Shown here: one piece after another, positions 1 to 22,661 of the stretch
Position numbering within the stretch: the first letter of the stretch is position 1
How the letters are laid out: each line of letters begins with the position of its first letter
Source: a virus
Taxonomy: Duplodnaviria; Heunggongvirae; Uroviricota; Caudoviricetes
DNA: 25,355 nucleotides
Direction: 5' to 3' (one strand)
IMG/VR virus record: IMGVR_UViG_2563366824_000002
Location: 1-25,355 of that record
Program-made: the position numbers and the translations under genes
The notes under the pieces: model-generated
The model's input: only the letters and a program-made list of their open reading frames with translations
Databases searched by the model: none
Told to the model about the DNA's origin: nothing

Positions 1-1164
1 TTACGCCTTCTTTATATCCTCCATAATTCCAGAGTGGGACATATTTGGGACATTATCACCAAAAATGTCGTCTATTTTCCTCGCATGCTCTGTCAAATGA
101 TTAGGCGCAAGGTGAGCATACCTACGAACCATTTCTATGGACTCCCATCCGCCCATTTCCTGAAGCACTGATAATGGGACGCCTGACTGAATCAGCCAGC
201 TTGCCCAGGTGTGTCTGAGGTCATGGAAACGGAAATCTTCAATTCCTGCACGACGACAAGCTGATAGCCATGATGTCTTGCTGTCGATGCGCATCTTCCT
301 GACCGCAGGCGTTGATGTTCCATCTGCTCGCTTAGCCGCCTTGGTATGTACAAACACCCATTTGTGATGCTTGCCTATTTGATCACGCAACACTTTACAG
401 GCGGTATCGTTCAGCGCCACACCAATGGCGCGGTTTGATTTGCTCTCTTCTGGATTCACCCAGGCAACTCGTCGCTGCATGTCGATTTGTTGCCATTCCA
501 GATTTATGATGTTCGACTTTCTCAGACCAGTTGCCAGCGCAAACTTGACGACAGATTTCAGTGGTTCGGGGCACTCATCAATAAGGCGTTTTGCTTCCTC
601 CTTTTCCAGCCATCTGACTCGCTTGTTTCTGACCGCTGGTATCTTGATGACAGGCGCTTTTTCCAGCCACTTCCAGTCGCGTTCTGCAGCACGGAGAATG
701 GCCTTTATCATGGCAAGATGCTTTGCCTTTGTCTGAGTTGATACTGGCTTTGGTTCATAAACAGGCGGTTCTTTACCTTTCCTGATGGCGGCCTGAACTT
801 TCTGTTTCCATATTTCTTTCGTCTTTCTGTTATGCATTCTGCTTACAGCAGAGTAAATCTTTGCCTCCGAGATATCTTTAAGCCTTATACCCTCAAAATG
901 TTCAAGCCAGAACTCAATCCGGCTTTTATCTGAATCGAGAGATTTTTTATCAGCTTTTTCCTCAAGCCATCTTAGGCAGGCCTCTTCAAAAGTGACATCA
1001 GGTAAATCCCCTAGCTTTTCTACTCGCCAGAGTTCTGCTTTTCGCTTGTCGTGCAACTCCTGAGCTTGCCGCTTGTCCTTTGTGCCAAGAGATTCCTTAA
1101 TTCGTTTCCCGCCCGGGAGCGAATACGAGGCATACCATATTTCATTTCTGCGGAAGAGTGACAT
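1..1164 (-). CDS. int: Tyrosine-recombinase phage integrase (DLP12 IntD-like, 387 aa)
   Basis: Full-length 387-aa ORF. C-terminal catalytic region carries the HDLRHTWAS and VRRYAHL motifs expected of the R-H-R-Y tyrosine recombinase fold. Leftmost gene, with its 5' end overlapped by the excisionase-like ORF as in lambdoid int-xis modules. Confidence 0.9.
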
Positions 1165-1391
1165 TTTCTTTCCTCTGTTATGCCATCACCCGCGCTCACC
1201 TGGACAGTATGCAGCGGAGACTGAAGCGCCGCAATGCAGGCTTGCCGTGTTGTGAGGTAAGGAGATTTTGGCTTGGTTGGATCTTTACGTGTTGCCTGTA
1301 GGCGGCCTGTTCGTATCCAGTTGGTGGCGGTTGGTCTGGATATCTTAAGAAACTGACAGGCCTCATCGAGTGTGAGGCTGTATGATTCCAT
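1020..1391 (-). CDS. xis: Excisionase-like HTH DNA-binding protein (Xis/AlpA type)
   Basis: ATG at 1391 is preceded by GAGG about 6 nt upstream on the minus strand. N-terminus [31 protein letters not shown] resembles the winged-helix excisionase fold. It overlaps the int 5' end in another frame. The length (123 aa) is longer than lambda Xis, so the true C-terminal extent is uncertain. Confidence 0.55.
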
Positions 1392-1641
1392 GGTTACCTC
1401 TGCTTTTTGAACGCATGTCACGTAACTTCTTAATGTGTTCTGCCGTTTCGATCTCTTCTGCTATCCGATCTGCATCAGCTTTATTCACAGGTTCAAAGTC
1501 ATGATTAAAGCGGAACATGCTGGCGATACATGTTCTGCCTTTTCGGATGTAGTGAACTTTGTTGTGGGTAGAACGCAGGATTTTGCAGGGAGTGCCGTGG
1601 TGGTCGACGTACCAGGTGTTAGGAAAAATGATTCTGAACAT
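1363..1641 (-). CDS. Hypothetical protein (92 aa) in the int-proximal accessory region
   Basis: ORF with GAGGTG 7 nt upstream of the ATG at 1641 (minus strand); its 3' end overlaps the xis start by about 29 nt. I do not recognise the family. Confidence 0.35.
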   Translation of the reverse strand: MFRIIFPNTWYVDHHGTPCKILRSTHNKVHYIRKGRTCIASMFRFNHDFEPVNKADADRIAEEIETAEHIKKLRDMRSKSRGNHGIIQPHTR

Positions 1642-1688
1642 TTTTACACCTCAGTTGGACGATGTTGAAATTTGCTGCTTTGAGGCCA

Positions 1689-1907
1689 TCACAGTCCCCA
1701 TTGTTTGTTCTTAAGTTCGATCTCCTCCTGGCAACTAGCACAAGTCCGACAACCCTGAACAGCCAGGCGTCTTCGCTCATCTATCGGATCGCCACACTCA
1801 CAACAATGAGTTGCGGATACAGTCTGGTAGTTCAGACGACGCATTTTTATTGCTGTATTGCGCTGTAATTCTTCGATTTCTGATGCTGAATCAATGATGT
1901 CTGCCAT
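1689..1907 (-). CDS. TraR/DksA-family C4-type zinc-finger protein (72 aa)
   Basis: Contains CCECGDPIDERRRLAVQGCRTCASCQ, i.e. a CxxC-(17)-CxxC arrangement typical of TraR/DksA zinc fingers that bind the RNA polymerase secondary channel. Small acidic N-terminus. Confidence 0.7.
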   Translation of the reverse strand: MADIIDSASEIEELQRNTAIKMRRLNYQTVSATHCCECGDPIDERRRLAVQGCRTCASCQEEIELKNKQWGL

Positions 1908-1957
1908 CTTTCATTAATCCCTGAATTGTTGGTTAATACGCTTGAGGATGAATGCGA

Positions 1958-1984
1958 ACAATAAAAAAGGAGCCTGTAGCTCCC
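1958..1984 (-). terminator. Probable intrinsic terminator downstream of the DGQHR gene (minus strand)
   Basis: GGAGC-CTGTA-GCTCC hairpin (1969..1983) followed on the minus strand by TTTTTTATT, lying between the DGQHR ORF stop (2061) and the TraR-like ORF start (1907). Confidence 0.5.
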
Positions 1985-2060
1985 TGATGATTTTGCTTTT
2001 CATGTTCACCGTTCCTTAAAGACGCCGTACAGCATGCTGATATGAGACAATGTTGATTCA

Positions 2061-3125
2061 TTAAGTTGTTTCCAGACTTCCTTTGGTAAAAGCTTGTATC
2101 AGTCTGTTTGCTGCTGCTTTCTGCGCTGCCACATTGGCAATAACAGATAGTTTTTCCTGGCTGGCTTTCGTGCAGATCCCCGCCCAGTTATCCATCAGAA
2201 AAAAATCCTCTCTTTCTGCAGAGCTGGTAGTTGCACATAGTTTTTCGATCATAGAAGTTATTTCTGCGATGGAATGATTAACCATCATCTGTTGAACCGC
2301 AAAACCGAAAGCGTTAATCATTACTCCATGGAACTGAATATAATCGCGCTTGTACGTAGCGTGGTGTACACCATGTCGAATTGAGTCAATCTGAGTTAGT
2401 GTAATCCATGCCTCCCAGACAGATTCTATATATCCCATTTCAAGTTGTTGATTGCCGTTCCTAGCGAACTTTGACGTTGCATCAGTGAGTGCCTTGAAAC
2501 TCACCCACATATTACTTTTTAATGGCACTACGTTGTGTTCAAAATCGGTTATATCGGCAAATACAGTATGTTGGGTCAGGAAGGATATCATTCCCTGAGC
2601 AATATCATCCCGGCCGTTATACGCCATATTGATGGTCGCTGATGGCTTAGAAACGTTGTTATTTATGTCCGAAAAGAACTGCTGCCGGGTTTTTAGCGGC
2701 AGATTCATTGTAAGCATCATGGGAACCATGAGCGTTGATGGGGAACTTCGGCAAAATATCTCAATGCCAGCTGCACGATGTTGACCATCAAAAAGTTTTA
2801 TTTCGGCGTCGAGGGGAATTCTGGCTATACCAACATTTGTGTTGCCAAACGGTACAAATTCTATATTCGAATCACAGTTACCTACGAGAGGGGGAATGAT
2901 AAAAGGCTCATTTCTTGAGTCTGCGTTAGTGAGATAATTTAAAAATTTTCGTACTCGATTTGGATTAATTTCTCGCTGAGAGCGTTCCAGTGTATGGCCG
3001 TAATTATCTGAAGCGAGGAAACGAGCCAGCGATCTTCCTGGTATGGTAAGGAAGAGTGTAACAGTACCACCCTGTACACCTTGCGATGCCGGAAATTCGA
3101 ATGAATGATTACCAACCTGACTCAT
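2061..3125 (-). CDS. DGQHR-domain protein (DndB-like, ParB/sulfiredoxin superfamily), standalone, 354 aa
   Basis: Contains the exact motif FDGQHR (…IKLFDGQHRAAGIE…) about 110 aa from the N-terminus, the signature of DndB/DpdB-type DGQHR domains. Strong RBS (AGGAGG) 7 nt upstream of the ATG at 3125. Bracketed by a 150-bp gap to exo on one side and a hairpin terminator on the other. Visibly more AT-rich than the neighbouring exo/bet. Confidence 0.75.
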   Translation of the reverse strand: MSQVGNHSFEFPASQGVQGGTVTLFLTIPGRSLARFLASDNYGHTLERSQREINPNRVRKFLNYLTNADSRNEPFIIPPLVGNCDSNIEFVPFGNTNVGIARIPLDAEIKLFDGQHRAAGIEIFCRSSPSTLMVPMMLTMNLPLKTRQQFFSDINNNVSKPSATINMAYNGRDDIAQGMISFLTQHTVFADITDFEHNVVPLKSNMWVSFKALTDATSKFARNGNQQLEMGYIESVWEAWITLTQIDSIRHGVHHATYKRDYIQFHGVMINAFGFAVQQMMVNHSIAEITSMIEKLCATTSSAEREDFFLMDNWAGICTKASQEKLSVIANVAAQKAAANRLIQAFTKGSLETT

Positions 3126-3276
3126 ATATCCTCCTGTTTATTATTTATCTTCTCAGCCAGCCGCTGTGCTTTCAGTGGATTTCTGATAACAGAAAGGCCG
3201 GGAAATACCCAGCCTCGCTTTGTAATTGAGTAGACGAAAGTGATCGCGCCTACCCGGATATTATCGTGAGGATGCG

Positions 3277-3957
3277 TCATCGCCATTGCTCCCCAAATAC
3301 AAAACCAATTTCAGCCAGTGCCTCGTCCATTTTTTCGATGAACTCCGGCACCATCTCGTCAAAACTCGCTATGTACTTTTCATCCCGCTCAACCACGACA
3401 TAATGCAGGCCTTCACGCTTCATACGCGGGTCATAGTTGGCAAAGTACCAGGCATCTTTTCGCGTCACCCACATGCTGTACTGCACCTGGGCCATGTAAG
3501 CCGACTTTATGGCCTCGAAACCACCGAGCCGGAACTTCATGAAATCCCGGGAGGTAAACGGGCATTTCAGCTCAAGGCCATTGCCGTCACTGCATAAACC
3601 ATCGGGAGAGCAGGCGGTGCGCATACTTTCGTCGCGATAGATGATCGGGGATTCAATAACATTTACGCCGGAAGTGAACTCAAACAGGGTTCTGGCGTCG
3701 TTCTCGTACTGTTTTCCCCAGGCCAGCGCTTTAGCGTTAACTTCCGGAGCCACACCGGTGCAAACCTCAGCCAGCAGGGTGTGGAAGTAGGACATTTTCA
3801 TGTCAGGCCACTTCTTTCCTGATCGGGGCTTTGCTATCACGTTGTGAACTTCTGAAGCGGTGATGACGCCGAGCCGTAATTTGTGCCATGCATCATCCCC
3901 CTGTTCGACAGCTCTCACGTCGATCCCGGTACGCTGCAGGATAATGTACGGTGTCAT
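3277..3957 (-). CDS. exo: Lambda-type exonuclease (Red-alpha, 226 aa)
   Basis: Translation is near-identical over its whole length to phage lambda Exo as I recall it ([64 protein letters not shown]…FVFGEQWR). Four-nt overlap with bet. Confidence 0.95.
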
Positions 3958-4739
3958 GCTGCCACCTTCTGCTCAGTGGCTTTCTGTTTCAGGAATCCAA
4001 GAGCTTTCACTGCTTCGGCCTGTGTCAGTTCTGACGATGCGCGAATGTCGCGGCGAAATATCTGGGAACAGAGCGGCAATAAGTCGTCATCCCATGTTTT
4101 ATCCAGGGCAATCAGCAGAGTGTTAATCTCCTGCATGGTTTCATCGTTAACCGGAGTGATGTCGCGTTCCGGCTGACGTTCTGCAGTGTATGCGGTATTT
4201 TCGACAATGCGCTCGGCTTCATCCTTGTCATAGATACCAGCAAATCCGAAGGCGAGACGGGCACACTGAATCATGGCTTTATGCCGTAACATCCGTTTGG
4301 GATGCGACTGCCACGGCCCCGTGATTTCTCTGCCTTCGCGGGTTTTGAATGGTTCGCGGCGGCATTCATCCATCCACTCGGTAACGCAGATCGGATGATT
4401 GCGGTCTTTGCGGTAAATCCGGCATGTGCAGGATTCGTTGTCCTGTTCAAAGTCCATGCCGTCAAACTGCTGGTTTTCGTTGATGATGCGGGACCAGCCA
4501 TCAACGCCCACCACCGGAACGATGCCGTTCTGCTTATCGGGGAAGGCGTAAATTTCTTTCGTCCACGGATTAAGGCCGTATTGGTTGGCGACGATCAGCA
4601 ATGCGGTGAACTGCGCATCGCTGGCATCGCCTTTAAATGCTGTCTGGCGAAGAGTGGTGATCAGTTCCTGTGGGTCGACAGAATCCATGCCGACACGTTC
4701 AGCCAGCTTCCCAGCCAGCGTTGCGAGTGCTGTACTCAT
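3954..4739 (-). CDS. bet: Lambda-type single-strand annealing protein Beta (Red-beta, 261 aa)
   Basis: Translation [38 protein letters not shown]… matches lambda Bet essentially throughout. Confidence 0.95.
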
Positions 4740-4744
4740 CCGTT

Positions 4745-5041
4745 TTATACCTCTGAATCAATATCAACCTGGTGGTGAGCAATGGTTTCAACCATGTACC
4801 GGATGTGTTCTGCCATGCGCTCCTGAAACTCAACATCGTCATCAAACGCACGGGTAATGGCTTTTTTGCTGGCCCCGTGGCGTTGCAAATGATCGATGCA
4901 TAGCGATTAAAACAGGTGCTGGGGCAGGCCTTTTTCCATGTCGTCTGCAAGTTCTGCCTCTTTCTCTTCACGGGCGATCTGCTGGTAGTGACGCGCCCAG
5001 CTCTGAGCCTCAAGACGATCCTGAATGTAATAAGCGTTCAT
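4745..5041 (-). pseudogene. gam: gam (RecBCD inhibitor, GamS-length) interrupted by an in-frame TAA
   Basis: Minus-strand reading from the ATG at 5041 gives [44 protein letters not shown], then TAA at 4907..4909, then in frame [15 protein letters not shown]…[10 protein letters not shown] to the stop at 4745..4747. Lambda has GAA (Glu) at this codon; here it is TAA. Both halves are under 60 aa, so the gene is absent from the ORF track. Confidence 0.8.
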
Positions 5042-5179: not shown

Positions 5180-5485
5180 ATGCTGATTGATAAGTTAAAG
5201 TCTTCTCCGATGTACCCAACCGCAGAAATGGGTAAGCAGTCGAAAAAGAATCATTGGTATGTAAGGGAAAAGGGGAGTGATCAACCGCAAGACCAGACCT
5301 GGAGAGCTTGGTGGGAATCTCGCTCGCTTGGCAAAGGCCATATCAATTGGAGATCTACATGCGTAGCAGAAAATGTACTCGATCCATTCAATCCGCCATC
5401 TCGGTTTGAGGTTGATTTCAAAGCCCCTGATGGGAGTATCTACAACCTTGAATTTGCTTTGGCTCCACACGGCCCAAACAAGTGA
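5180..5485 (+). CDS. Hypothetical protein (about 101 aa), rightward-oriented in the leftward early operon region
   Basis: ATG at 5180 with AAGG about 9 nt upstream. Product is Trp-rich and charged (MLIDKLKSSPMYPTAEMGKQSKKNHWYVREKG…) with no recognisable family. An alternative minus-strand ORF (5195..5470) covers the same DNA, so the coding strand is ambiguous. Confidence 0.35.
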   Translation: MLIDKLKSSPMYPTAEMGKQSKKNHWYVREKGSDQPQDQTWRAWWESRSLGKGHINWRSTCVAENVLDPFNPPSRFEVDFKAPDGSIYNLEFALAPHGPNK

Positions 5486-5489
5486 GTAG

Positions 5490-5780
5490 TTAGTGGCTCA
5501 GACCACCGCCAGTACCATTCAGGTAAACCTCCACGAGCAAATCTTTTGTGTACGTTCGTTCGATGCCGCGATGCAAGTAAAGCCGACCGCGCAAATTAGC
5601 TGATGCCGTCCAGGTACCATCTTTGTGTTTAACCAGCATACCTGGCCGGACGGCACCGCGATTAACGGTCTGAGTTCCGTAATGTTGATGAACCATAAAA
5701 ACTCCTGCCCGTAAGCTGGGCTGCTGAACATATAGAGACTTCTGCGCGTATTCAGGCGGTGCATGGCCGCCGGTTGTCAT
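5490..5780 (-). CDS. Hypothetical protein (96 aa), first ORF downstream of the putative P_L
   Basis: ATG at 5780 with GAGG about 10 nt upstream. Codon usage looks E. coli-like (CTG, GGT, CGC). It occupies the position taken by N in lambda but has no arginine-rich N-terminal motif. Family not recognised. Confidence 0.35.
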   Translation of the reverse strand: MTTGGHAPPEYAQKSLYVQQPSLRAGVFMVHQHYGTQTVNRGAVRPGMLVKHKDGTWTASANLRGRLYLHRGIERTYTKDLLVEVYLNGTGGGLSH

Positions 5781-5976
5781 AACTAAGCCGCCTCGTTGAA
5801 GCGACTAAGGTATGAAATGTTGAGTTAATTTCAGCTGGTCACACCGACGTTCACGCGTCCGTTTCACCCCTCGCACTCCCCGAAGCCTGCTGAAATTCAA
5901 ACTGTGGATCTAAGCGGTCATCGCAACGGTGAATCAGGTAGTTGCCGTATCGTTGTGTTGTTGCGATGAACTTATT

Positions 5977-6050
5977 TAAAACTATAGTTGTTTTATCGTT
6001 AACAACAAAAGTTGTTTTATTGGTTGTTTTAGATATAACTGGTTGTATTT
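5977..6050. promoter_or_regulatory. Putative O_L operator cluster and P_L
   Basis: Clustered dyad-like repeats built from AACAAC / GTTGTT half-sites (AAAACTATAGTTGTTTT, AACAACAAAAGTTGTTTT, TGGTTGTTTT, ACTGGTTGT). The same half-site family recurs in the cI-cro intergenic region. Confidence 0.5.
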
Positions 6051-6291
6051 AGGATGGATTTATTTTGTGACTTGAATCGCATAGCGATAACTGAAGCGAG
6101 GTTATGGTGGTTTTTTTAACGGTGTGTGTGATGAGGGGAGGGCAAAAGAAAACCCGGCACGGTGACCGGGATTCTTACGCCGTTAGGTAAAGATATTATT
6201 GCGGTGGCTTAATATTACTACCTAGAGCAAAGATAGGAATTAGTTCTTTACTGAATGAGCACAATGCCCAGTTGATAATTTTTAATTGGTA

Positions 6292-6981
6292 CTACCCATG
6301 CTTCCTATATGTCTGCGGCATGCTCCCAATAACCTTACCGAAGATGAACACCCGGTTCATCTCGTCTTTCTCGATCGGGTCCCACGGTGAGTAGCTTTTG
6401 TTATCAGAGATGACCAGCAGCTTATCCTTCATCATTTGCAGGCGCTTTACATGGGCTGTGTCGTCGTACAGAAACGCATAGATACCATCACCGTCGAAAG
6501 ATTTAACTGTGATATCAACGAACAGCAGATCACCTGGTTCGATCGTTCCTGACATGCTGTCACCACGCACGTTAATGATGCGGATATTTTCCGCCTTCCT
6601 ACCATCGAACATGTGACGAGCATCGTCAAACGAGTACTCAACCGAGCGTAGAACTTCTACAAACTCACGGTTGATGACTCCCGGCCCAGCACTGACTTCT
6701 ATATCAAGAACGTCAATCTTGAAGTATTTGGAATGGCTGACAGTTGATTGTATTGGTTGCACTGTACTGTCTGACATATTTCCAACGCCAGAAGATAACC
6801 ATTCTGCGCGCACACCCAAAGCGTTCGCGATCTCCACGATTTTAGTTGTTTGATTAGCTTTCCCTGTTTCGATTTTCTGAATAGCAGCCTGGCTAACCCC
6901 GACCAAATCCCCAAGCGCCTTTTGTGTAAGGCCTCGCGCTAATCTGGCTTCTTTAAGTCTTTCTGAGAGTGTTGTTTTCAT
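6292..6981 (-). CDS. cI: CI-like prophage repressor (N-terminal XRE HTH, C-terminal S24 LexA-like autopeptidase)
   Basis: From MKTTLSERLKEARLARGLTQKALGDLVGVSQAAIQKIETGK (HTH). Ala-Gly cleavage site in EVSAGPG. S24 motifs RGDSMSGTIEPGDLLFVD (Ser) and HVKRL (Lys). The ATG at 6981 sits about 10 bp from the first operator, compatible with a leaderless P_RM-type transcript; the longer ORF-track start at 7047 lies inside the operators and is rejected. Confidence 0.85.
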   Translation of the reverse strand: MKTTLSERLKEARLARGLTQKALGDLVGVSQAAIQKIETGKANQTTKIVEIANALGVRAEWLSSGVGNMSDSTVQPIQSTVSHSKYFKIDVLDIEVSAGPGVINREFVEVLRSVEYSFDDARHMFDGRKAENIRIINVRGDSMSGTIEPGDLLFVDITVKSFDGDGIYAFLYDDTAHVKRLQMMKDKLLVISDNKSYSPWDPIEKDEMNRVFIFGKVIGSMPQTYRKHG

Positions 6982-6987
6982 AGTCCA

Positions 6988-7056
6988 AATGTACAACCAA
7001 GGTTTTATTCCATCAAACGAAAATGGTTGTTGACTAAAAACAACCATAGTTTTAAT
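6988..7056. promoter_or_regulatory. Putative O_R operator cluster with divergent P_RM / P_R
   Basis: GTACAACCAAGGTTTTAT and the inverted repeat ATGGTTGTT-GACTAAA-AACAACCAT (7023..7047) lie between the divergent repressor and Cro-like genes. Confidence 0.55.
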
Positions 7057-9878: not shown

Positions 9879-12800
9879 ATGACCACTGTGAATAAAAAGT
9901 TAAAAAAAACTGCATCTGGCGCGATTACATGGTCAGTAATTGTTACCCAGATATTATCTCCAGTTTCTCTTTCTTTGATTCCGGCAAACAGTTTTGCATC
10001 GTCTGATAATAAAGATGTTACGCAAATTTATGCTAGCGATGAGCGTGCAAATAAAGTGGCCTCATTTGCAGTAAGTGCAGGTCAGAGTCTGGCGAATAAT
10101 AATGCAAGTAGTTTTGCTGTAAATACTTTATCAACTCAGGCGACAAAAGAGGTCGTCGATTGGTTGCAACAATATGGCAATGCGCGCATCAAGCTTAATG
10201 TCGATGATTCTTTTTCCTTGAAGGATTCATCATTCGACTTTTTATATCCATGGCTGGATACTCAGGATTATGTGCTATTCAGTCAAACATCACTACATCG
10301 TACTGATGACCGTAATCAGACCAATATTGGTTTGGGGATTCGTCATTTCACTCCTGATAATGCAATGTTGGGTGCGAATGTTTTCTACGATTATGATTTA
10401 AGTCGCAGCCACTCTCGCGCAGGTTTTGGGGTTGAGTACTGGAGAGATTATTTCAGGCTTGGTGTAAATACCTATTTTGGTTTATCTGACTGGAAGGACA
10501 GTCGGGATATTGATGATTATCTGGAAAGACCCGCAAATGGCTGGGATTTTTCTGCTGAAGGATGGCTACCTGCTTATCCGCAATTAGGGGCATCTATTCA
10601 GTTTGAAAAATATTATGGTAAAAATGTCGGATTATTTGGAAGCGATAATCTGCAGGAAAACCCTTACGCAGTTACTGGGGGAATTTCTTATACACCAGTT
10701 CCTCTGATTAAGTTTTCTGCACAGCATAAGCAAGGACAGAGCAACGTTCACGATACAACCTTTGGTGTTGAGTTTAATTACCGCCCAGGCGTTTCCCTTG
10801 CTGAACAGCTTAGCAGTGACAATGTTGCAGTTATGCGAGAAGTCCAGAACCGGCGTTATGATTTTGTTGAACGAAATAACAACATTGTTCTGGAGTACAA
10901 GAAGAAGCATGCACTGAAAATCAGCTTACCAGAGTCTGTTCAGGGGGATGGCGAATCAATCATCCCTGTAACACTGACAATCAACAATGCCAGTGGTGGT
11001 ATCAAGTCTGTACAGTGGAATGATAGTGTATTCACTGCGGCTGGCGGTAAGATCAGTGGAAATGGCACATCATGGCAGGTCACTTTACCGGCTTATAAAA
11101 GCGAAGGTGTAAATTCGTGGAATGTTGGAGCCACGGTCCAGGATAATAGAGGCAACGTTTCCAACTATGCGGTGATGAATATTAGCGTTATTAATAGTGG
11201 TGTCTCGACAGCGGATTCTTCTTTTACGTTGGATGGTGATTCGTCTCCGACGATCTCTGCTGATGGTCAATCCACTCATCCAATAGTATTAAGCCTGAAA
11301 GACAGTAACGGTAAGGCATTAACCGGACTGGCTGATGACATTGAAATGTCAGTGGAATTTACTGCGGATAGCAATAGTGCTCGACAGCGTGAAACGGTAA
11401 CTGCCCCGTCATTAGGCGCGGTAGAGGAAATCTCTGCTGGTGTATATCGCTCTGTTCTGACTGCTGGTTCGCAGGCTGGTACGGTACGTGTAACTGCAAA
11501 AGTAATGGATAAAACATTTACTCTCAGTATTAAGCAAACAGCAGCAACAGAACCTGATTCTGAGGTCAGTGCTGTTTTAACCGCTGCACCAGCAGAACAG
11601 GTAGTTGGTTACAATATCAATCTACAACTGGCAGTGAAGGATTCACAAGGAAATGCAATCACTGGTGATAACACTCTGAGCTTTTATGCTCTTAACCAGG
11701 CAGAAGGAGTCGAGTTTGGGGCTGTAACGGAAAAAGACGGTGTCTATAGCGCGACAGTAACTTCAAAACGAGCTGGTAAGATTCGGATCGGTGTTAAATC
11801 GGGTAGTCACAATTTCTCAGGTATTGAGAAAGAAATCTCCTTTATTGAAGATCGAACACAGTTCGCATTCTCTCGTATTGAAGCCAGTAAAAATAATGCA
11901 TTGGCTGACGGCAAACAACAGAATACGGTGACTGTAAGCCTTGCAGATCGTTTCGGCAATGTTGTGCCCGGTTATGCTGTTACGCTGTCCTTACCTGCGG
12001 GGGTAACTCAAGTTGGTGGTGAACATGCTGTGTCAACTGACGAAAACGGTAATGCTGTTTTTGCGTTAATAAGCTCCACTCCGGGTTCTTACGTGATTAA
12101 AGCTCATGCTGGTTCTCAGATGTCTACTGAGTTAACAGTAACCTTTGCATCAAATATGATCGGAGCTTCACTGTCACTGACGCCTGGAAACAGTAGCTTA
12201 ATTTCCAATATTCCTGCTAATGGTAAGGATGCTGCGGTATTGAATGTGCAACTGACAAATACGAATGCGTCGGTCAATGGACAGAAGATTCAGCTCATCA
12301 CCTCATCTGAAGGATTGTCTGTACCGACAAATATCGTGACTGATTCAACAGGGCATGTTTCCGTACCACTTACAACGGTGAGAGCTGGTGAGTATACGGT
12401 GGCTGCACGAGTGACTGACGGTTCCCATAGTGTGGAGTCTGGCAGCGTTAAGTTAACTTTTGTACCAGATGCTGCTTCCGCAGAACTTACTATGAGTACA
12501 TCAAAACAGCAGATTGTGGCCGATGGTAGTGAAAGTGCAACAGTGGACATTCAGTTGGTTGATGCCAATAACAATGCGTTTACAGGCGATGTGGATTTAA
12601 CGGTTACACCATCGACGGGAGCATCATTGACCAGTAGTAAACTGCAGTTGGATGCTCATGGACAGGCAACAACGCAGTTCACAGCATCGAAATCAGGCCA
12701 GTACACAATTCAGGCTGAGTATGTTCTAGATGGGAAACGTATAACCGCAAGCAAAAATATTGATGCCGTGACGGATGTGAAGGAGGCTGTGTTGGAGATC

Positions 12801-13430
12801 ACATCATCTGCATCTTCGGCTGTAGTGAGCGATACCAACAATCTGATATTTACGTTACTGTTGAAAAGTACGTCAGGCGAAGTATTAAGTGGTCGAGTAT
12901 TGAATATCAAGGCATCTGGGCCGTCCAAATATGGTGCGTTGGTGGTTGATAAAACCACTGTAACGACTGATGAGTATGGTCTGGCTACGGTAAGCGTACA
13001 TGGTCGAACGGCTGGTTCGTATAAATTAACGGCGACCTTAGATGAACTTGGCAGTGATGTTAGTGAGGTGAAGTCATTCTCTCTGTATGCTGATGAGGCA
13101 AATGGAGTATTGACACTGCATAAAGATGGAGGCTATGACACAGATGATGGTACTCCAGTGGGGGTTTATGCCCGATTTGTTGACCATTTCGGCAATCCGT
13201 TATCTGGTACGGTTGAGTTTTCTGCTGGTAGTGAAGATAGTCCAAACTCTCAACGGGTTAAAATGGAGCCTGCTACAGTAACGTTACACTGGACAGGTAA
13301 TGCAGCCTCGGAGTTCAGCACCTATGAAAGCGGTTATCACTGGATTAAGGCCAAAATAACGAACAGCAAAAATACATATGAGAAAACAATAAGGACTTAT
13401 GTTGTAAAGCTCCCTGAAAAGGATAGTTAA
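9879..13430 (+). CDS. Invasin/intimin-family inverse autotransporter adhesin (1183 aa) with a long array of Ig-like (Big) repeats
   Basis: N-terminal signal peptide. Beta-domain strongly resembles invasin (…EGWLPAYPQLGASIQFEKYYGKNVGLFGSDNLQENPYAVTGGISYTPVPLIKFSAQHKQGQSNVHDTTFGVEFNYRPG…RRYDFVERNNNIVLEYKKK). Followed by about 800 aa of repeated roughly 100-aa modules. Preceded by a 240-bp AT-rich intergenic region. Confidence 0.85.
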   Translation: MTTVNKKLKKTASGAITWSVIVTQILSPVSLSLIPANSFASSDNKDVTQIYASDERANKVASFAVSAGQSLANNNASSFAVNTLSTQATKEVVDWLQQYGNARIKLNVDDSFSLKDSSFDFLYPWLDTQDYVLFSQTSLHRTDDRNQTNIGLGIRHFTPDNAMLGANVFYDYDLSRSHSRAGFGVEYWRDYFRLGVNTYFGLSDWKDSRDIDDYLERPANGWDFSAEGWLPAYPQLGASIQFEKYYGKNVGLFGSDNLQENPYAVTGGISYTPVPLIKFSAQHKQGQSNVHDTTFGVEFNYRPGVSLAEQLSSDNVAVMREVQNRRYDFVERNNNIVLEYKKKHALKISLPESVQGDGESIIPVTLTINNASGGIKSVQWNDSVFTAAGGKISGNGTSWQVTLPAYKSEGVNSWNVGATVQDNRGNVSNYAVMNISVINSGVSTADSSFTLDGDSSPTISADGQSTHPIVLSLKDSNGKALTGLADDIEMSVEFTADSNSARQRETVTAPSLGAVEEISAGVYRSVLTAGSQAGTVRVTAKVMDKTFTLSIKQTAATEPDSEVSAVLTAAPAEQVVGYNINLQLAVKDSQGNAITGDNTLSFYALNQAEGVEFGAVTEKDGVYSATVTSKRAGKIRIGVKSGSHNFSGIEKEISFIEDRTQFAFSRIEASKNNALADGKQQNTVTVSLADRFGNVVPGYAVTLSLPAGVTQVGGEHAVSTDENGNAVFALISSTPGSYVIKAHAGSQMSTELTVTFASNMIGASLSLTPGNSSLISNIPANGKDAAVLNVQLTNTNASVNGQKIQLITSSEGLSVPTNIVTDSTGHVSVPLTTVRAGEYTVAARVTDGSHSVESGSVKLTFVPDAASAELTMSTSKQQIVADGSESATVDIQLVDANNNAFTGDVDLTVTPSTGASLTSSKLQLDAHGQATTQFTASKSGQYTIQAEYVLDGKRITASKNIDAVTDVKEAVLEITSSASSAVVSDTNNLIFTLLLKSTSGEVLSGRVLNIKASGPSKYGALVVDKTTVTTDEYGLATVSVHGRTAGSYKLTATLDELGSDVSEVKSFSLYADEANGVLTLHKDGGYDTDDGTPVGVYARFVDHFGNPLSGTVEFSAGSEDSPNSQRVKMEPATVTLHWTGNAASEFSTYESGYHWIKAKITNSKNTYEKTIRTYVVKLPEKDS

Positions 13431-17462: not shown

Positions 17463-19572
<2,110 letters not shown>

Positions 19573-19639
19573 ATTTTATAACCCCAATACGGGCGTCAGA
19601 AATGACGCCTTTTTTATTGCAGAAAAGCGAGAGGTAATT

Positions 19640-20239
19640 ATGCGTAAATTATGTGCTGTTATTCTGTCCGCAGTAGTCTGGCTGGTTGCCGCTGGTACGC
19701 CAGCGAGCGCAGCAGAGCATCAGTCCACACTAAGCGCCGGGTATCTTCAGACCCATACTGATATGCCAGGCAGTGATGACCTGAAGGGCATTAACGTGAA
19801 ATACCGTTATGAATTTACGGACACGCTGGGGCTGGTGACGTCATTCAGTTATGCCAATGCCAAAGATGAGCAAAAAACGCATTACAGCGATACCCGCTGG
19901 CATGAAGATTCAGTGCGTAACCGCTGGTTCAGCATGATGGCGGGGCCGTCTGTACGCGTGAATGAATGGTTCAGTGCTTATGCGATGACGGGTGTGGCTT
20001 ACAGCCGTGTTTCGACGTTCTCCGGGGATTATCTCCGCGTAACTGACAGCAAGGGGAAAACGCACGATGTGCTGACCGGAAGTGATGGCGGTCGCCACAG
20101 CAACACGTCTCTGGCGTGGGGGGCTGGCGTGCAGTTTAACCCGACCGAATCCGTGGCCATTGACCTTGCTTATGAAGGTTCCGGCAGTGGCGACTGGCGC
20201 ACTGACGGTTTCATCGTGGGTGTCGGTTATAAATTCTGA
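19640..20239 (+). CDS. lom: Lom-like outer-membrane protein (Ail/Lom family, 199 aa)
   Basis: Signal peptide; the C-terminus …AIDLAYEGSGSGDWRTDGFIVGVGYKF is identical to lambda Lom, and GINVKYRYE is shared. Confidence 0.9.
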   Translation: MRKLCAVILSAVVWLVAAGTPASAAEHQSTLSAGYLQTHTDMPGSDDLKGINVKYRYEFTDTLGLVTSFSYANAKDEQKTHYSDTRWHEDSVRNRWFSMMAGPSVRVNEWFSAYAMTGVAYSRVSTFSGDYLRVTDSKGKTHDVLTGSDGGRHSNTSLAWGAGVQFNPTESVAIDLAYEGSGSGDWRTDGFIVGVGYKF

Positions 20240-20264
20240 TTAGCCAGGTAACACAGTGTTATGA

Positions 20265-20292
20265 CAGCCCGTCGGTTCAGGCGGGCTTTTTT
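20265..20292 (+). terminator. Intrinsic terminator after lom
   Basis: GCCCG-(9-nt loop)-CGGGC hairpin followed by TTTTTT. Confidence 0.6.
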
Positions 20293-20303
20293 GTGGAGTG
20301 GAT

Positions 20304-22661
20304 ATGGCAGCAGTAAAAATCTCAGGTGTGCTGAAAGATGGTGCGGGAAAACCAATACAGAACTGCACTATTCAACTGAAGGCAAAGCGTAACAGCACCA
20401 CGGTACTGGTGAACACGGTGGCCTCTGAAAATCCGGATGAAGCCGGGCGTTACAGCATGGATGTTGAGTATGGCCAGTACAGCGTCACCCTGCTGGTTGA
20501 AGGTTTTCCGCCTTCACATGCCGGAACCATTACCGTCTATGAAGGTTCCAGACCAGGTACGCTGAATGATTTTCTCGGTGCCATGACGGAAGATGATGTC
20601 ATGCCGGAGGCATTGCGTCGTTTTGAGGCAATGGTGGAAGAAGCGGCACGCAACGCCGAAGCCGCCTCTCAGAGCGCAGCGGTGGCAAAGAAATCCGAAA
20701 CTGCAGCGGCATCATCGAAGAACGCGGCGAAAACCTCAGAAACGAATGCAGCTAACAGCGCACAGGCGGCAGCGACCTCACAGACTGCATCGGCAAACTC
20801 CGCGACAGCAGCCAAAAAATCAGAAACCAACGCGAAAAACAGCGAGACAGCCGCAAAGACGAGCGAAACCAACGCAAAGTCCAGCCAGACGGCAGCGAAA
20901 ACCAGCGAAACGAATGCCAAAGCCAGTGAAACTGCGGCGAAAAACAGCCAGGCTGCAGCAGCTGAAAGCGAGAGCGCGGCGGCCGGTTCTGCGACTTCAG
21001 CAGCCGGATCAGCAACTGCTGCGGCTAACAGTCAGAAAGCAGCGAAGACGAGTGAAACTAACGCAAAGTCCAGCCAGACGGCAGCGAAGACCAGCGAAAC
21101 GAATGCCAAAGCCAGCGAAACTGCAGCGAAAAGCAGTCAGGATGCAGCAGCCGAAAGCGAGAGTGCTGCAGCTGGTTCTGCAACAGCGGCAGCTAATAGC
21201 CAAAAAGCTGCAAAAGCCAGTGAAACTAACGCAAAGACGAGTGAAACAAAAGCAGCAGCTAGCGAGACAGAAGCAACGTCAGCCGCAACAAGAGCAGAGA
21301 ATGCAGCCCGGATTGCAGAAGATGCCGCTGATCCTGCTTCTGTCCCTCCGCTTCCTGATATCTGGCTACCCTTGAATGATTCTCTGGAAGCGATAACAGG
21401 GTATGCCCCGGGCTATAAAACAATAACCATCGGCAGTGATGAAATAACAATGCCTGTTAATGGCATATGCCAATTTAGCCGGGCTTCATCTGCAACGTAT
21501 ATTGATAAGTCCGGGCATATTACCGTGGCAGGGAATAACGTTCCTCGTTTTGAAAAATATGGTTTTCTGATAGAGAATCAGCGAACAAACATGTTCGTAA
21601 ATAGTTTTAATCCTGATGCCTGGAATAAAAGCGGTGGTATATCTGTAACATCATCAACAGATGAATTTGAGTTTAAATATGGACGTTTCACAGTAGGAAG
21701 CGACATAGCAGGAACGACAACAGGGAGAAATATATGCACAGTTGCTGGTAATAAAGGCATAGATGTGACTGGCGATGATCAGTACAGTAAAGGTCCGTAT
21801 GTTACCGCGTCGTTCAGGGTAAGAAGTGATCTCAATGTTCGCGCACGTATCCGTTTTGAACGGTATAACTCGGAAGGATACACTTTCCTTTGTGACGCCT
21901 ATTTGTCATTACAGACCCATGAACTACAAATTACGGGTGGTAATGCCCAGCTATTAACAGCAAACTTTGAAATCGATCCAGGTAGTGGATGGATATATTT
22001 TCAGGCAACCCTGAAATGTCTGCCAGAATGGGGAATGGTTGGTACGCAGTTGCAAATTGCAGCCGACAGAGCTGTGGGGTCTTTTGCAACAGGTGACTGG
22101 ATAGAAGTAACCACCCCGCAATTTGAGTATGGTGCTTGTGCAACATCCTTTATCATAACGACAACAGAGCCAGCTACTCGTGCATCAGATTTATGTAAAT
22201 TTCCGCTGATGAAAAATATGTATACCATGCCTTTTACGTTCATGGTGGAAGTCCATAAAAACTGGTTTATTTCTCATAATGCTGCACCGCGTGTCATTGA
22301 TTCAGAAAATCACCAGTCCGGGGGCCCATTTATTATGGGGTTTGGTTCTTCTGGAACTATTAGTCAGGACGGTTATTCGTATTGCGATATAGGCGGGGCT
22401 AACCGACGTGTATATGAGTCATGCGGAGTAAGAGATCTCGTTATGGGATTCAGGGTTAAGGCTGACGGCATGACATGCTCATTTGCAAATAAGCATATAA
22501 GCACAGAAACAAAAACAGTATGGAAATATATTCGTGAAGCTGCCGTGATTCGTATCGGGGGGCAAACGACGACAGGATTACGACACCTTAATGGTCATAT
22601 AAAAAACCTCCGTTTCTGGAACAGAGCATTGTCAGATACGCAGCTTAAGGAATACGTATAA
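20304..22661 (+). CDS. stf: Side tail fibre protein Stf with alanine/serine-rich repeat shaft and a divergent C-terminal lectin-like (LamG/ConA-type) domain
   Basis: N-terminus MAAVKISGVLKDGAGKPIQNCTIQLKA matches lambda Stf. Central repeats K(T/S)SETNAK(S/A)S(E/Q)TAAK. The C-terminal …HLNGHIKNLRFWNRALSDTQLKEYV is typical of LamG-type domain ends. The ORF-track start at 20298 is a GTG extension. Confidence 0.85.
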   Translation: MAAVKISGVLKDGAGKPIQNCTIQLKAKRNSTTVLVNTVASENPDEAGRYSMDVEYGQYSVTLLVEGFPPSHAGTITVYEGSRPGTLNDFLGAMTEDDVMPEALRRFEAMVEEAARNAEAASQSAAVAKKSETAAASSKNAAKTSETNAANSAQAAATSQTASANSATAAKKSETNAKNSETAAKTSETNAKSSQTAAKTSETNAKASETAAKNSQAAAAESESAAAGSATSAAGSATAAANSQKAAKTSETNAKSSQTAAKTSETNAKASETAAKSSQDAAAESESAAAGSATAAANSQKAAKASETNAKTSETKAAASETEATSAATRAENAARIAEDAADPASVPPLPDIWLPLNDSLEAITGYAPGYKTITIGSDEITMPVNGICQFSRASSATYIDKSGHITVAGNNVPRFEKYGFLIENQRTNMFVNSFNPDAWNKSGGISVTSSTDEFEFKYGRFTVGSDIAGTTTGRNICTVAGNKGIDVTGDDQYSKGPYVTASFRVRSDLNVRARIRFERYNSEGYTFLCDAYLSLQTHELQITGGNAQLLTANFEIDPGSGWIYFQATLKCLPEWGMVGTQLQIAADRAVGSFATGDWIEVTTPQFEYGACATSFIITTTEPATRASDLCKFPLMKNMYTMPFTFMVEVHKNWFISHNAAPRVIDSENHQSGGPFIMGFGSSGTISQDGYSYCDIGGANRRVYESCGVRDLVMGFRVKADGMTCSFANKHISTETKTVWKYIREAAVIRIGGQTTTGLRHLNGHIKNLRFWNRALSDTQLKEYV
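20690..21250 (+). repeat. Intragenic tandem and direct DNA repeats encoding the Stf shaft
   Basis: Repeated units such as AAGACGAGTGAAACTAACGCAAAGTCCAGCCAGACGGCAGCGAAGACCAGCGAAACGAATGCCAAAGCCAG occur at least twice (about 20860..20930 and 21040..21110), with shorter ACCAGCGAAACGAATGC-type units throughout. Confidence 0.65.

Follow-up and report, generated by a model that had tools for sequence, protein, structure and literature searches.

Laboratory mutants of phage lambda with a nonsense codon in gam exist, the amber allele gam210 being one of them. The short form of the Gam protein, GamS, acts on RecBCD as a dimer; the body of the dimer lies over the duplex-binding arm of RecB, the channel for the 3′ tail is plugged by one N-terminal helix, and the interface on RecBCD amounts to about 2,500 square angstroms (PMC5218532). 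Natural lambdoid phages and prophages can do without such an inhibitor: among those with recombination modules, 43 of 246 had no anti-RecBCD gene at all, and of the 275 (pro)phages of Bobay, as summarised in the same source, 180 were without an inhibitor and 134 without an annealase (PMC12315714). A recombinase without a RecBCD inhibitor is a common state among lambdoids.

The DNA analysed here is a stretch of 25,355 nucleotides, referred to as the window (IMG/VR record IMGVR_UViG_2563366824_000002, positions 1 to 25,355), which carries lambda-like exo and bet genes next to a gam gene that is interrupted by a stop codon.

Location and gene content of the prophage

Apart from indels, the window was 99.9-100% identical to positions 605416-629962 of the chromosome of Escherichia coli AST217 (NZ_AP043630.1). 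In this strain the prophage adjoins a tRNA-Arg gene and intD, with appY, ompT and envY downstream. We take this tRNA-Arg/intD site to be the DLP12/argU site of E. coli K-12, and hence the prophage to occupy the same attachment site as the cryptic prophage DLP12. An IS21 in the DUF4222 gene was present only in AST217, while positions 18907-21846 were present only in the window.

The left part of the window contains, in this order, int and the genes for DUF4222, TraR, a DndB/DGQHR protein and DUF1317, followed by exo, bet, gam, orf101 and kilR. The middle part comprises the leader/operator region, a CI-type repressor gene, a Cro/YdaS-like gene, ydaT, O, P and an inverse autotransporter gene, and the right part ybcN-ninE-ybcO-rusA-ylcG, Q, a porin gene, a holin gene, IS3, a remnant of J, lom and tail-fibre genes. 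The following features bear on the state of the prophage:

6292 to 7047, minus strand: CI-type repressor with HTH and S24 self-cleaving peptidase domain, intact
17685 to 18898, plus strand: IS3-family element ISEc31, directly after the holin gene (17463-17678)
18895 to 19572, plus strand: remnant of the tail-tip protein J, last 225 aa, abutting the IS3 (positions 679-901 of 901 in phrog_2148)

Lysozyme, Rz, terminase, portal, capsid/head and tail-shaft genes were absent from the window, whereas intact relatives showed the order holin-lysozyme-Rz-bor-nu1-terminase-portal. The prophage is lambdoid and defective (cryptic). It is integrated in the chromosome, with its integrase gene next to the tRNA gene, and has been deprived of genes, since the holin gene is followed by IS3, only a remnant of J is left, and the lysis, packaging and structural genes are gone. 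The arrangement is that of a deletion adjacent to the IS element, by which the genes for lysis, packaging, head and tail were lost. When the porin protein was used to reach the late region of the sister assemblies described below, only unrelated prophages were retrieved.

Two further genes of the window were recorded. An intimin/invasin-like inverse autotransporter with IAT_beta and Big_1/Invasin_D3 repeats is encoded at positions 9879-13430 (plus strand), after the replication gene P. It comprised 1183 aa in the window and 1302 aa in AST217 and other members, indicating that the number of repeats varies within the clone. A 354-aa DndB/DGQHR-domain protein (positions 2061-3125, minus strand; PF14072, E=3.8e-46) is encoded between the DUF1317 and TraR genes, in a slot that holds DUF1382 and a small hypothetical gene in relatives; it may represent a defence-type accessory gene.

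The gam gene is interrupted by an ochre codon

Three features describe the gam locus:

4745 to 5041, minus strand: gam pseudogene of the GamS type, 98 codons, recognised by reading the frame and by a match to the family profile
4907 to 4909, minus strand: premature stop, ochre codon TAA in place of the ancestral GAA (Glu) of gam codon 45, next base T
4910 to 5041, minus strand: residual N-terminal gam ORF of 44 codons, without the C-terminal 53 residues

Translated from its ATG (position 5041, minus strand), gam consists of 44 codons, the TAA at 4909-4907, 53 further codons in the same frame and the normal stop codon at 4745-4747. An AGGAG ribosome-binding site is located 7 nt 5′ of the ATG. 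When Glu45 was restored, the product matched PF06064 over positions 1-98 of 98 (E=3.4e-65) and 5MBV_A over positions 1-98 (E=2.5e-61); the solved GamS chain 2UUZ was also matched. The gene differed from lambda GamS at four nucleotides, three of which altered the amino acid sequence (I22L, E45 to stop and A61S). In comparison with the closest intact haplotype (contigs L011, L013 and L015), the sole change in gam was a G-to-T exchange in codon 45, corresponding to C-to-A at position 4909 of the plus strand. A preliminary description of this DNA had reported the likeness to GamS, the TAA in place of GAA, the in-frame remainder and a single exchanged base; translation, the alignment with lambda and the one-base difference from the sister haplotype confirmed all of this, and its coordinates were exact.

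A chance stop codon in an unrelated ORF was ruled out. By descent, gam is a member of the Gam family; the uninterrupted frame of about 98 aa that characterises this family is broken by the TAA at codon 45, and the gene is now a pseudogene. The identical gene of AST217 carries the PGAP label 'host-nuclease inhibitor Gam family protein, internal stop'. The stop is thus already recorded in RefSeq as a pseudogene and is nothing new as a kind of feature.

Homology to lambda extends only about 18 nt beyond the GamS ATG on its 5′ side. With unrelated sequence in this upstream position, a GamL form is impossible. The 44-aa peptide is expected to be non-functional and Gam function to be lost, because GamS acts as a dimer and the peptide is without the C-terminal 53 residues; judged against the structure, it should lack most of the interface with RecBCD.

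The stop may also affect the genes downstream. About 160 nt remain untranslated between the gam stop and bet, and the stretch from the repressor gene to kilR showed no gene for an N-type antiterminator; such a gene does occur in a related prophage whose immunity region is a different one (L014). On account of the untranslated stretch and the missing N gene, some Rho-dependent polarity is plausible, by which the expression of bet and exo would be reduced. Chi sites were not found in the window, where 0.68 were expected, which is consistent with a recent loss of the inhibitor; an enrichment of Chi, looked for as a mark of a long existence without Gam, was not observed.

The neighbouring leftward genes

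The genes and the leader on either side of gam are as follows:

3277 to 3957, minus strand: exo, lambda exonuclease, YqaJ domain (PF09588), 226 aa, full length
3954 to 4739, minus strand: bet, annealase of the Red-beta/RecT family (RecT, PF03837), 261 aa, full length, with the lineage-private exchange I45T
5180 to 5485, plus strand: orf101, conserved phage ORF between kilR and gam (phrog_16212, unknown function, E=9e-70)
5490 to 5696, minus strand: kilR-type cell-division inhibitor, intact, 68-aa form with an AGGAG site (PF27398, KilR; phrog_294)
5697 to 6291, minus strand: leader of the leftward operon with putative pL/oL (repeats shared with 7023-7047)

As in the lambda Red module, exo and bet are adjacent, co-oriented, full-length frames, which overlap by 4 nt. 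Their products differed from those of lambda by six amino acids (Exo) and two amino acids (Bet), and exo was identical to that of the sister haplotype. The exchange in Bet results from ATC to ACC in codon 45 (positions 4605-4607; plus-strand base 4606). Ile45, encoded by ATC, was invariant in 125 other copies, which represent 96 distinct alleles of 94-99.9% identity. A 61-mer containing the Thr45 codon was unique among 419 genomes, and Thr45 was always linked with the TAA in gam. The statement in the preliminary description that exo and bet are intact and lambda-like is accordingly right as to their full length and the few differences from lambda, but bet is not simply intact, as it carries I45T. 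By virtue of this exchange, the recombinase itself may be impaired. Residue 45 was also sought in the paper on the Red-beta structure and was not found there. That codon 45 is altered in both bet and gam is a coincidence.

The kilR product matched phrog_294 ('Kil protein for bacterial septation inhibition') with E=1.4e-36; a longer form of the gene is given by a 96-aa ORF extending to position 5780. For orf101 no Pfam match was obtained, and the gene was absent from the prophage of strain 6EVA, which otherwise shares the region.

Derived changes on the branch with the stop

Substitutions were polarised with 88-3493, AST216 and lambda as outgroups. Four changes proved to be derived on the branch carrying the TAA: Bet I45T (position 4606), Gam E45 to stop (4909), position 5762 in the kilR leader, which would be codon 7 of the 96-aa kilR ORF if the longer form is real, and position 5905 in the leader. 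The allele at 5762 was private to AST217 in a 31-mer test of complete genomes. The allele at 5905 could also be observed in strain 6EVA. The prophage of this strain is a different one, located at ybhC; it shares the repressor, its gam is intact, and 24 bp are deleted from its operator cluster (5986-6009). At position 6000, inside the putative oL/pL repeat cluster, the outgroups had A, the sisters and GCA_032373365.1, a member with the TAA, had G, and the window had A again. Since 5905 is shared with 6EVA and 6000 has gone back and forth, both are polymorphisms of an exchangeable immunity module. An initial set of five clustered lineage-derived differences was cut to three private ones (Bet I45T, Gam E45 to stop and 5762) after polarisation and the comparison with 6EVA.

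The location of the four polarised changes within 1.3 kb of 14 kb gave a simulated p of about 0.003, and that of the three private changes within 1.16 kb a p of about 0.02 by an analytic scan formula, both values being post hoc and based on very few events. Clustering of the private changes in the promoter-proximal 1.2 kb is recorded here as unexplained and not as evidence of selection. Either selection or a focus of mutation in this stretch of the leftward operon, close to the promoter, could lie behind it.

The putative oL/pL consists of AACAAC/GTTGTT half-sites at about 5975-6050 and a TATAGT at 5986-5981; we infer the assignment as promoter and operator from repeats that resemble the palindrome at 7023-7047. 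In contig L013 the TATAGT was changed to TATAAT at position 5982. The leader and the putative oL/pL repeat cluster were unusually variable among near-identical prophages.

Distribution and ancestry of the allele

Assemblies with TAA or GAA at gam codon 45 were retrieved by exact-protein look-ups with Bet and Exo of the window. The TAA, together with Thr45 (ACC) in bet, was identical in ten distinct assemblies, one complete genome among them: AST217, GCA_019583835.1, GCA_032373365.1, GCA_958336895.1, GCA_025909855.1, GCA_013023645.1, GCA_025297335.1, GCA_050541685.1, GCA_000352625.1 and GCA_048035215.1. GCA_025909855.1, with its numerous single-base indels, looks like an assembly of low quality. 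Three assemblies with the same prophage backbone formed a sister set with GAA in gam and Ile45 (ATC) in bet (GCA_000352665.1, GCA_021194385.1 and GCA_029848175.1); they differed from the window by a single base each in gam and bet, and their exo was identical. In public assemblies the 44-aa Gam product was called on 207 contigs and Bet with Thr45 on 127.

A 61-bp stretch of gam was present in 2,254 complete genomes and identical to the window only in AST217. With a 31-mer requiring T at codon 45, AST217 alone was detected among 5,426 complete E. coli genomes, by which a widespread allele was ruled out. No exact match of the TAA allele was obtained in metagenome or IMG/VR collections, the GAA control giving more than 120 matches in IMG/VR. 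Gam fragments of 40-45 aa, which had been considered as parallel truncations, were labelled 'partial', had scattered ends and were probably cut by the ends of contigs.

In the TAA carriers that were checked, the host flank showed 0-1 differences over 6.7 kb. This near-identity indicates that the TAA arose once, in one clone. The GAA sister GCA_000352665.1 (L018), in contrast, differed from the TAA clone at 36 of 6,724 bases in the flank and at 6 of 13,957 bases in the prophage. With the flank far more diverged than the prophage, nearly the same prophage is found in different E. coli backgrounds at the same site; it has entered different hosts or was recombined into them. Between L017 and L018 the prophage was about 12 times less diverged than the host flank beyond int, the fimZ/sfm region (0.04% vs 0.54%).

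Order of decay

The sequences with and without the TAA differed in the region behind the holin gene. The GAA sister GCA_000352665.1 showed holin-lysozyme-Rz-bor in normal order. GCA_032373365.1, which has the TAA, showed holin-IS3-lysozyme and thus an intermediate state. In the window and in GCA_000352625.1 the holin gene was followed by IS3 and the J remnant, and in AST217 and GCA_019583835.1 still further loss was observed. Because GCA_032373365.1 has the TAA and keeps lysozyme beside IS3, the stop must have been there before the large deletion took place. Parsimony puts the TAA, Bet I45T and IS3 together on one early branch, with the large deletion following afterwards. As its stop arose no later than IS3, gam belongs to the earliest losses of the prophage. 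Further hits in sublineages included an IS1 in the DndB-like gene of GCA_032373365.1, the IS21 in the DUF4222 gene of AST217, and the substitutions Int L51P and Exo A70T (L007). The ancestral haplotype being public, this prophage is a clean, datable case in which the early order of decay can be read.

Decay of gam, bet and exo in related prophages

To relate the stop in gam to chance, all single substitutions creating a stop codon were counted per gene as its nonsense target. Within the three Red genes (gam, bet, exo), gam made up 18% of this target; within all leftward ORFs, kilR through DUF4222, its share was 9%. From one event with a chance share of 9-18%, selectivity is not demonstrable.

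Among 120 related IMG/VR contigs, lesions were found in gam only (one contig), in gam and bet (two), in bet only (three) and in exo only (one). As these contigs had been chosen for an intact gam codon-45 region, gam lesions are undercounted, and the sample is too small for a statistical test. The gam-only lesion, in an unrelated prophage on contig L148 (3555-3851), was Q7 to stop (CAG to TAG) beside full-length bet and exo. The lesions affecting both genes were a deletion that joined nt 187 of gam to nt 590 of bet (L143) and frameshifts (L127); the bet-only lesions occurred in L115, L068 and L156, and the exo-only lesion in L078. All three genes, gam, bet and exo, decay in related contigs. The notion that exo decays more often than gam, which had been based on eight internal stops in IMG/VR, was dropped, since all eight were at the last codon. 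They represent a common exo variant with TAA replacing the final Arg226 (225 aa), which is harmless (L051, L064, L075, L084, L085, L111, L131 and L159).

Explanations for the stop

We consider the TAA to be probably a near-neutral lesion, which belongs to the ordinary decay of the prophage and was fixed by descent in one E. coli clone. A single G-to-T transversion in the lambdoid prophage of this clone turned GAA at gam codon 45 into TAA. The stop is one of several lesions in a prophage that is unable to make virions, its companions being the IS3 after the holin gene, the deletion from lysozyme to J, the missense change in bet, and IS1 and IS21 in sublineages. The base change, its ancestry, its limitation to one clone and the accompanying lesions are plain from the assemblies; that no selective cause was involved, we infer.

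The preliminary description had proposed that the inhibitor was lost selectively, as a step of domestication, because Gam would be harmful to the host. Of this proposal, the single nonsense change beside full-length exo and bet frames stood, but a selective cause was not established. The harm proved to depend on conditions: Wilkinson et al. reported that Gam expression without drug left the viability of E. coli unaffected, whereas the MIC of ciprofloxacin was four-fold lower (PMC5218532). The cost of Gam is thus conditional on double-strand-break stress. Under such stress, an SOS-derepressed prophage that does not lyse its host would make Gam at the time when RecBCD repair is needed, and cells with a dead gam would survive better, so that the TAA would have been selected; in a variant of this explanation, Gam would trigger an abortive-infection system of the host that guards RecBCD, and some published defence systems are reported to monitor the integrity of RecBCD. 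The repressor has the S24 peptidase domain that goes with this explanation; it is also intact and should therefore keep gam silent in the lysogen. The TAA is at least as old as the IS3 that blocks lysis, and it preceded the large deletion, but it is a single event in the lineage, with the chance expectation given above. The private substitutions are clustered in the promoter-proximal part of the operon, although 5905 and 6000, two further sites in the cluster, are polymorphic and move together with the immunity module. L148 provides a second, independent gam-only nonsense allele; yet in the survey of 120 contigs, chosen as they were for an intact gam codon-45 region, lesions were no more frequent in gam than in bet. 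Selective loss is weakly favoured by the clustered private changes and by the Q7-to-stop allele, and the early timing of the TAA and the moderate success of the clone also leave it open. The clone is human-associated and fairly common, and its moderate success, to judge by the 207 and 127 contigs, indicates that the TAA allele is at least not costly. Two neighbouring genes point the other way. The intact kilR speaks against toxicity of the operon as the driver, as kilR would also be harmful to an induced, non-lysing cell and would have been an equally obvious target. The Bet exchange, at an invariant residue and on the same branch, looks like relaxed constraint; the recombinase pair is not evidently being preserved. 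Taken together, we consider an adaptive disarming of the prophage unlikely. Rather improbable is its extended form, according to which the gam knockout would be the adaptive first step in taming an SOS-inducible, non-lysing prophage and the cluster of private substitutions a footprint of selection; without Gam, neither would RecBCD repair be blocked nor a RecBCD-guarding system be set off during DNA damage, for instance by fluoroquinolones.

The remaining explanations concern the origin, the effect and the reality of the TAA. Given the mosaic nature of lambdoid prophages and the presence of several gam copies, at up to four places per genome, in many E. coli, the clustered derived sites including the TAA might have been imported by recombination or gene conversion from a lambdoid prophage with a dead gam, much as the 5905 allele is also found in the unrelated 6EVA prophage with the same immunity module. 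No donor was found, however: the TAA and 5762 alleles occurred only in AST217, one of 5,426 complete genomes, and the 61-mer of Bet Thr45 likewise only in AST217, in each case once per genome, and the sequence around these sites shows no other difference from the sister haplotype. Such an import is very unlikely. It is hardly credible that gam still works, be it because the ochre codon is read through, because a suppressor tRNA acts on it, or because the 44-aa peptide complements a re-initiated C-terminal fragment. The frame of the window copy is indeed open past the stop and free of secondary lesions, but the mutation is young, as seen from the 6 of 13,957 prophage bases at which the sister differs, so no secondary lesions are expected. 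TAA followed by T is the most efficient termination context in E. coli, and a search for a suppressor found no tRNA gene in the window. Of the in-frame start codons downstream, TTG at codon 52 has no ribosome-binding site, and ATG at codon 76, although preceded by AGGAG, would give a product of only 23 aa; GamS, by comparison, is a dimer with an extensive interface on RecBCD (PMC5218532). An error of sequencing or assembly has a negligible chance of explaining the stop, given that the same base was present in 10 assemblies, that the truncated product was called on 207 contigs, and that linkage with Bet Thr45 was perfect.

If ordinary decay is the right explanation, as we think probable, the stop in gam matters little, as one more pseudogene in a decaying prophage with a resulting gene content that is common. 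If instead the adaptive explanation were true, the decay of a prophage gene would be tied to survival of the host under quinolone-type DNA damage.

Comparison with known systems

The locus resembles the lambda gam nonsense mutants in that one nonsense codon removes the RecBCD inhibitor while exo and bet remain. It differs from them in that its ochre codon, number 45 of a gene that encodes GamS only, is of natural origin, and in being fixed in a chromosomal, defective prophage of one clone. With the natural lambdoids that have a recombinase and no inhibitor (Bobay et al. 2013, as summarised in PMC12315714; Zheng et al. 2025), it shares an annealase and an exonuclease without a working anti-RecBCD function. 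Those lambdoids, however, usually lack the inhibitor gene and tend to be rich in Chi sites (PMC12315714), whereas here gam is present and freshly broken, and Chi is missing.

The Rac prophage, with kilR and recET in its early-left region, is also defective and likewise combines an inhibitor of the KilR family and immunity of the YdaS/YdaT type with an adjoining recombination module; this module is of the lambda exo/bet/gam type in the window and consists of recE/recT in Rac. Similarity to DLP12 extends from the tRNA-Arg gene and intD to ybcN, ninE, ybcO, rusA, ylcG, quuD and an nmpC/ompC-like porin gene, and appY and ompT are situated downstream of both. Both have also lost structural genes and acquired IS insertions. 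In contrast to DLP12, the prophage of the window keeps the broken gam, bet, exo, kilR, the repressor/cro/ydaT genes, O, P, the inverse autotransporter and tail-fibre remnants. With more genes kept than in DLP12, it is at a much earlier stage of decay.
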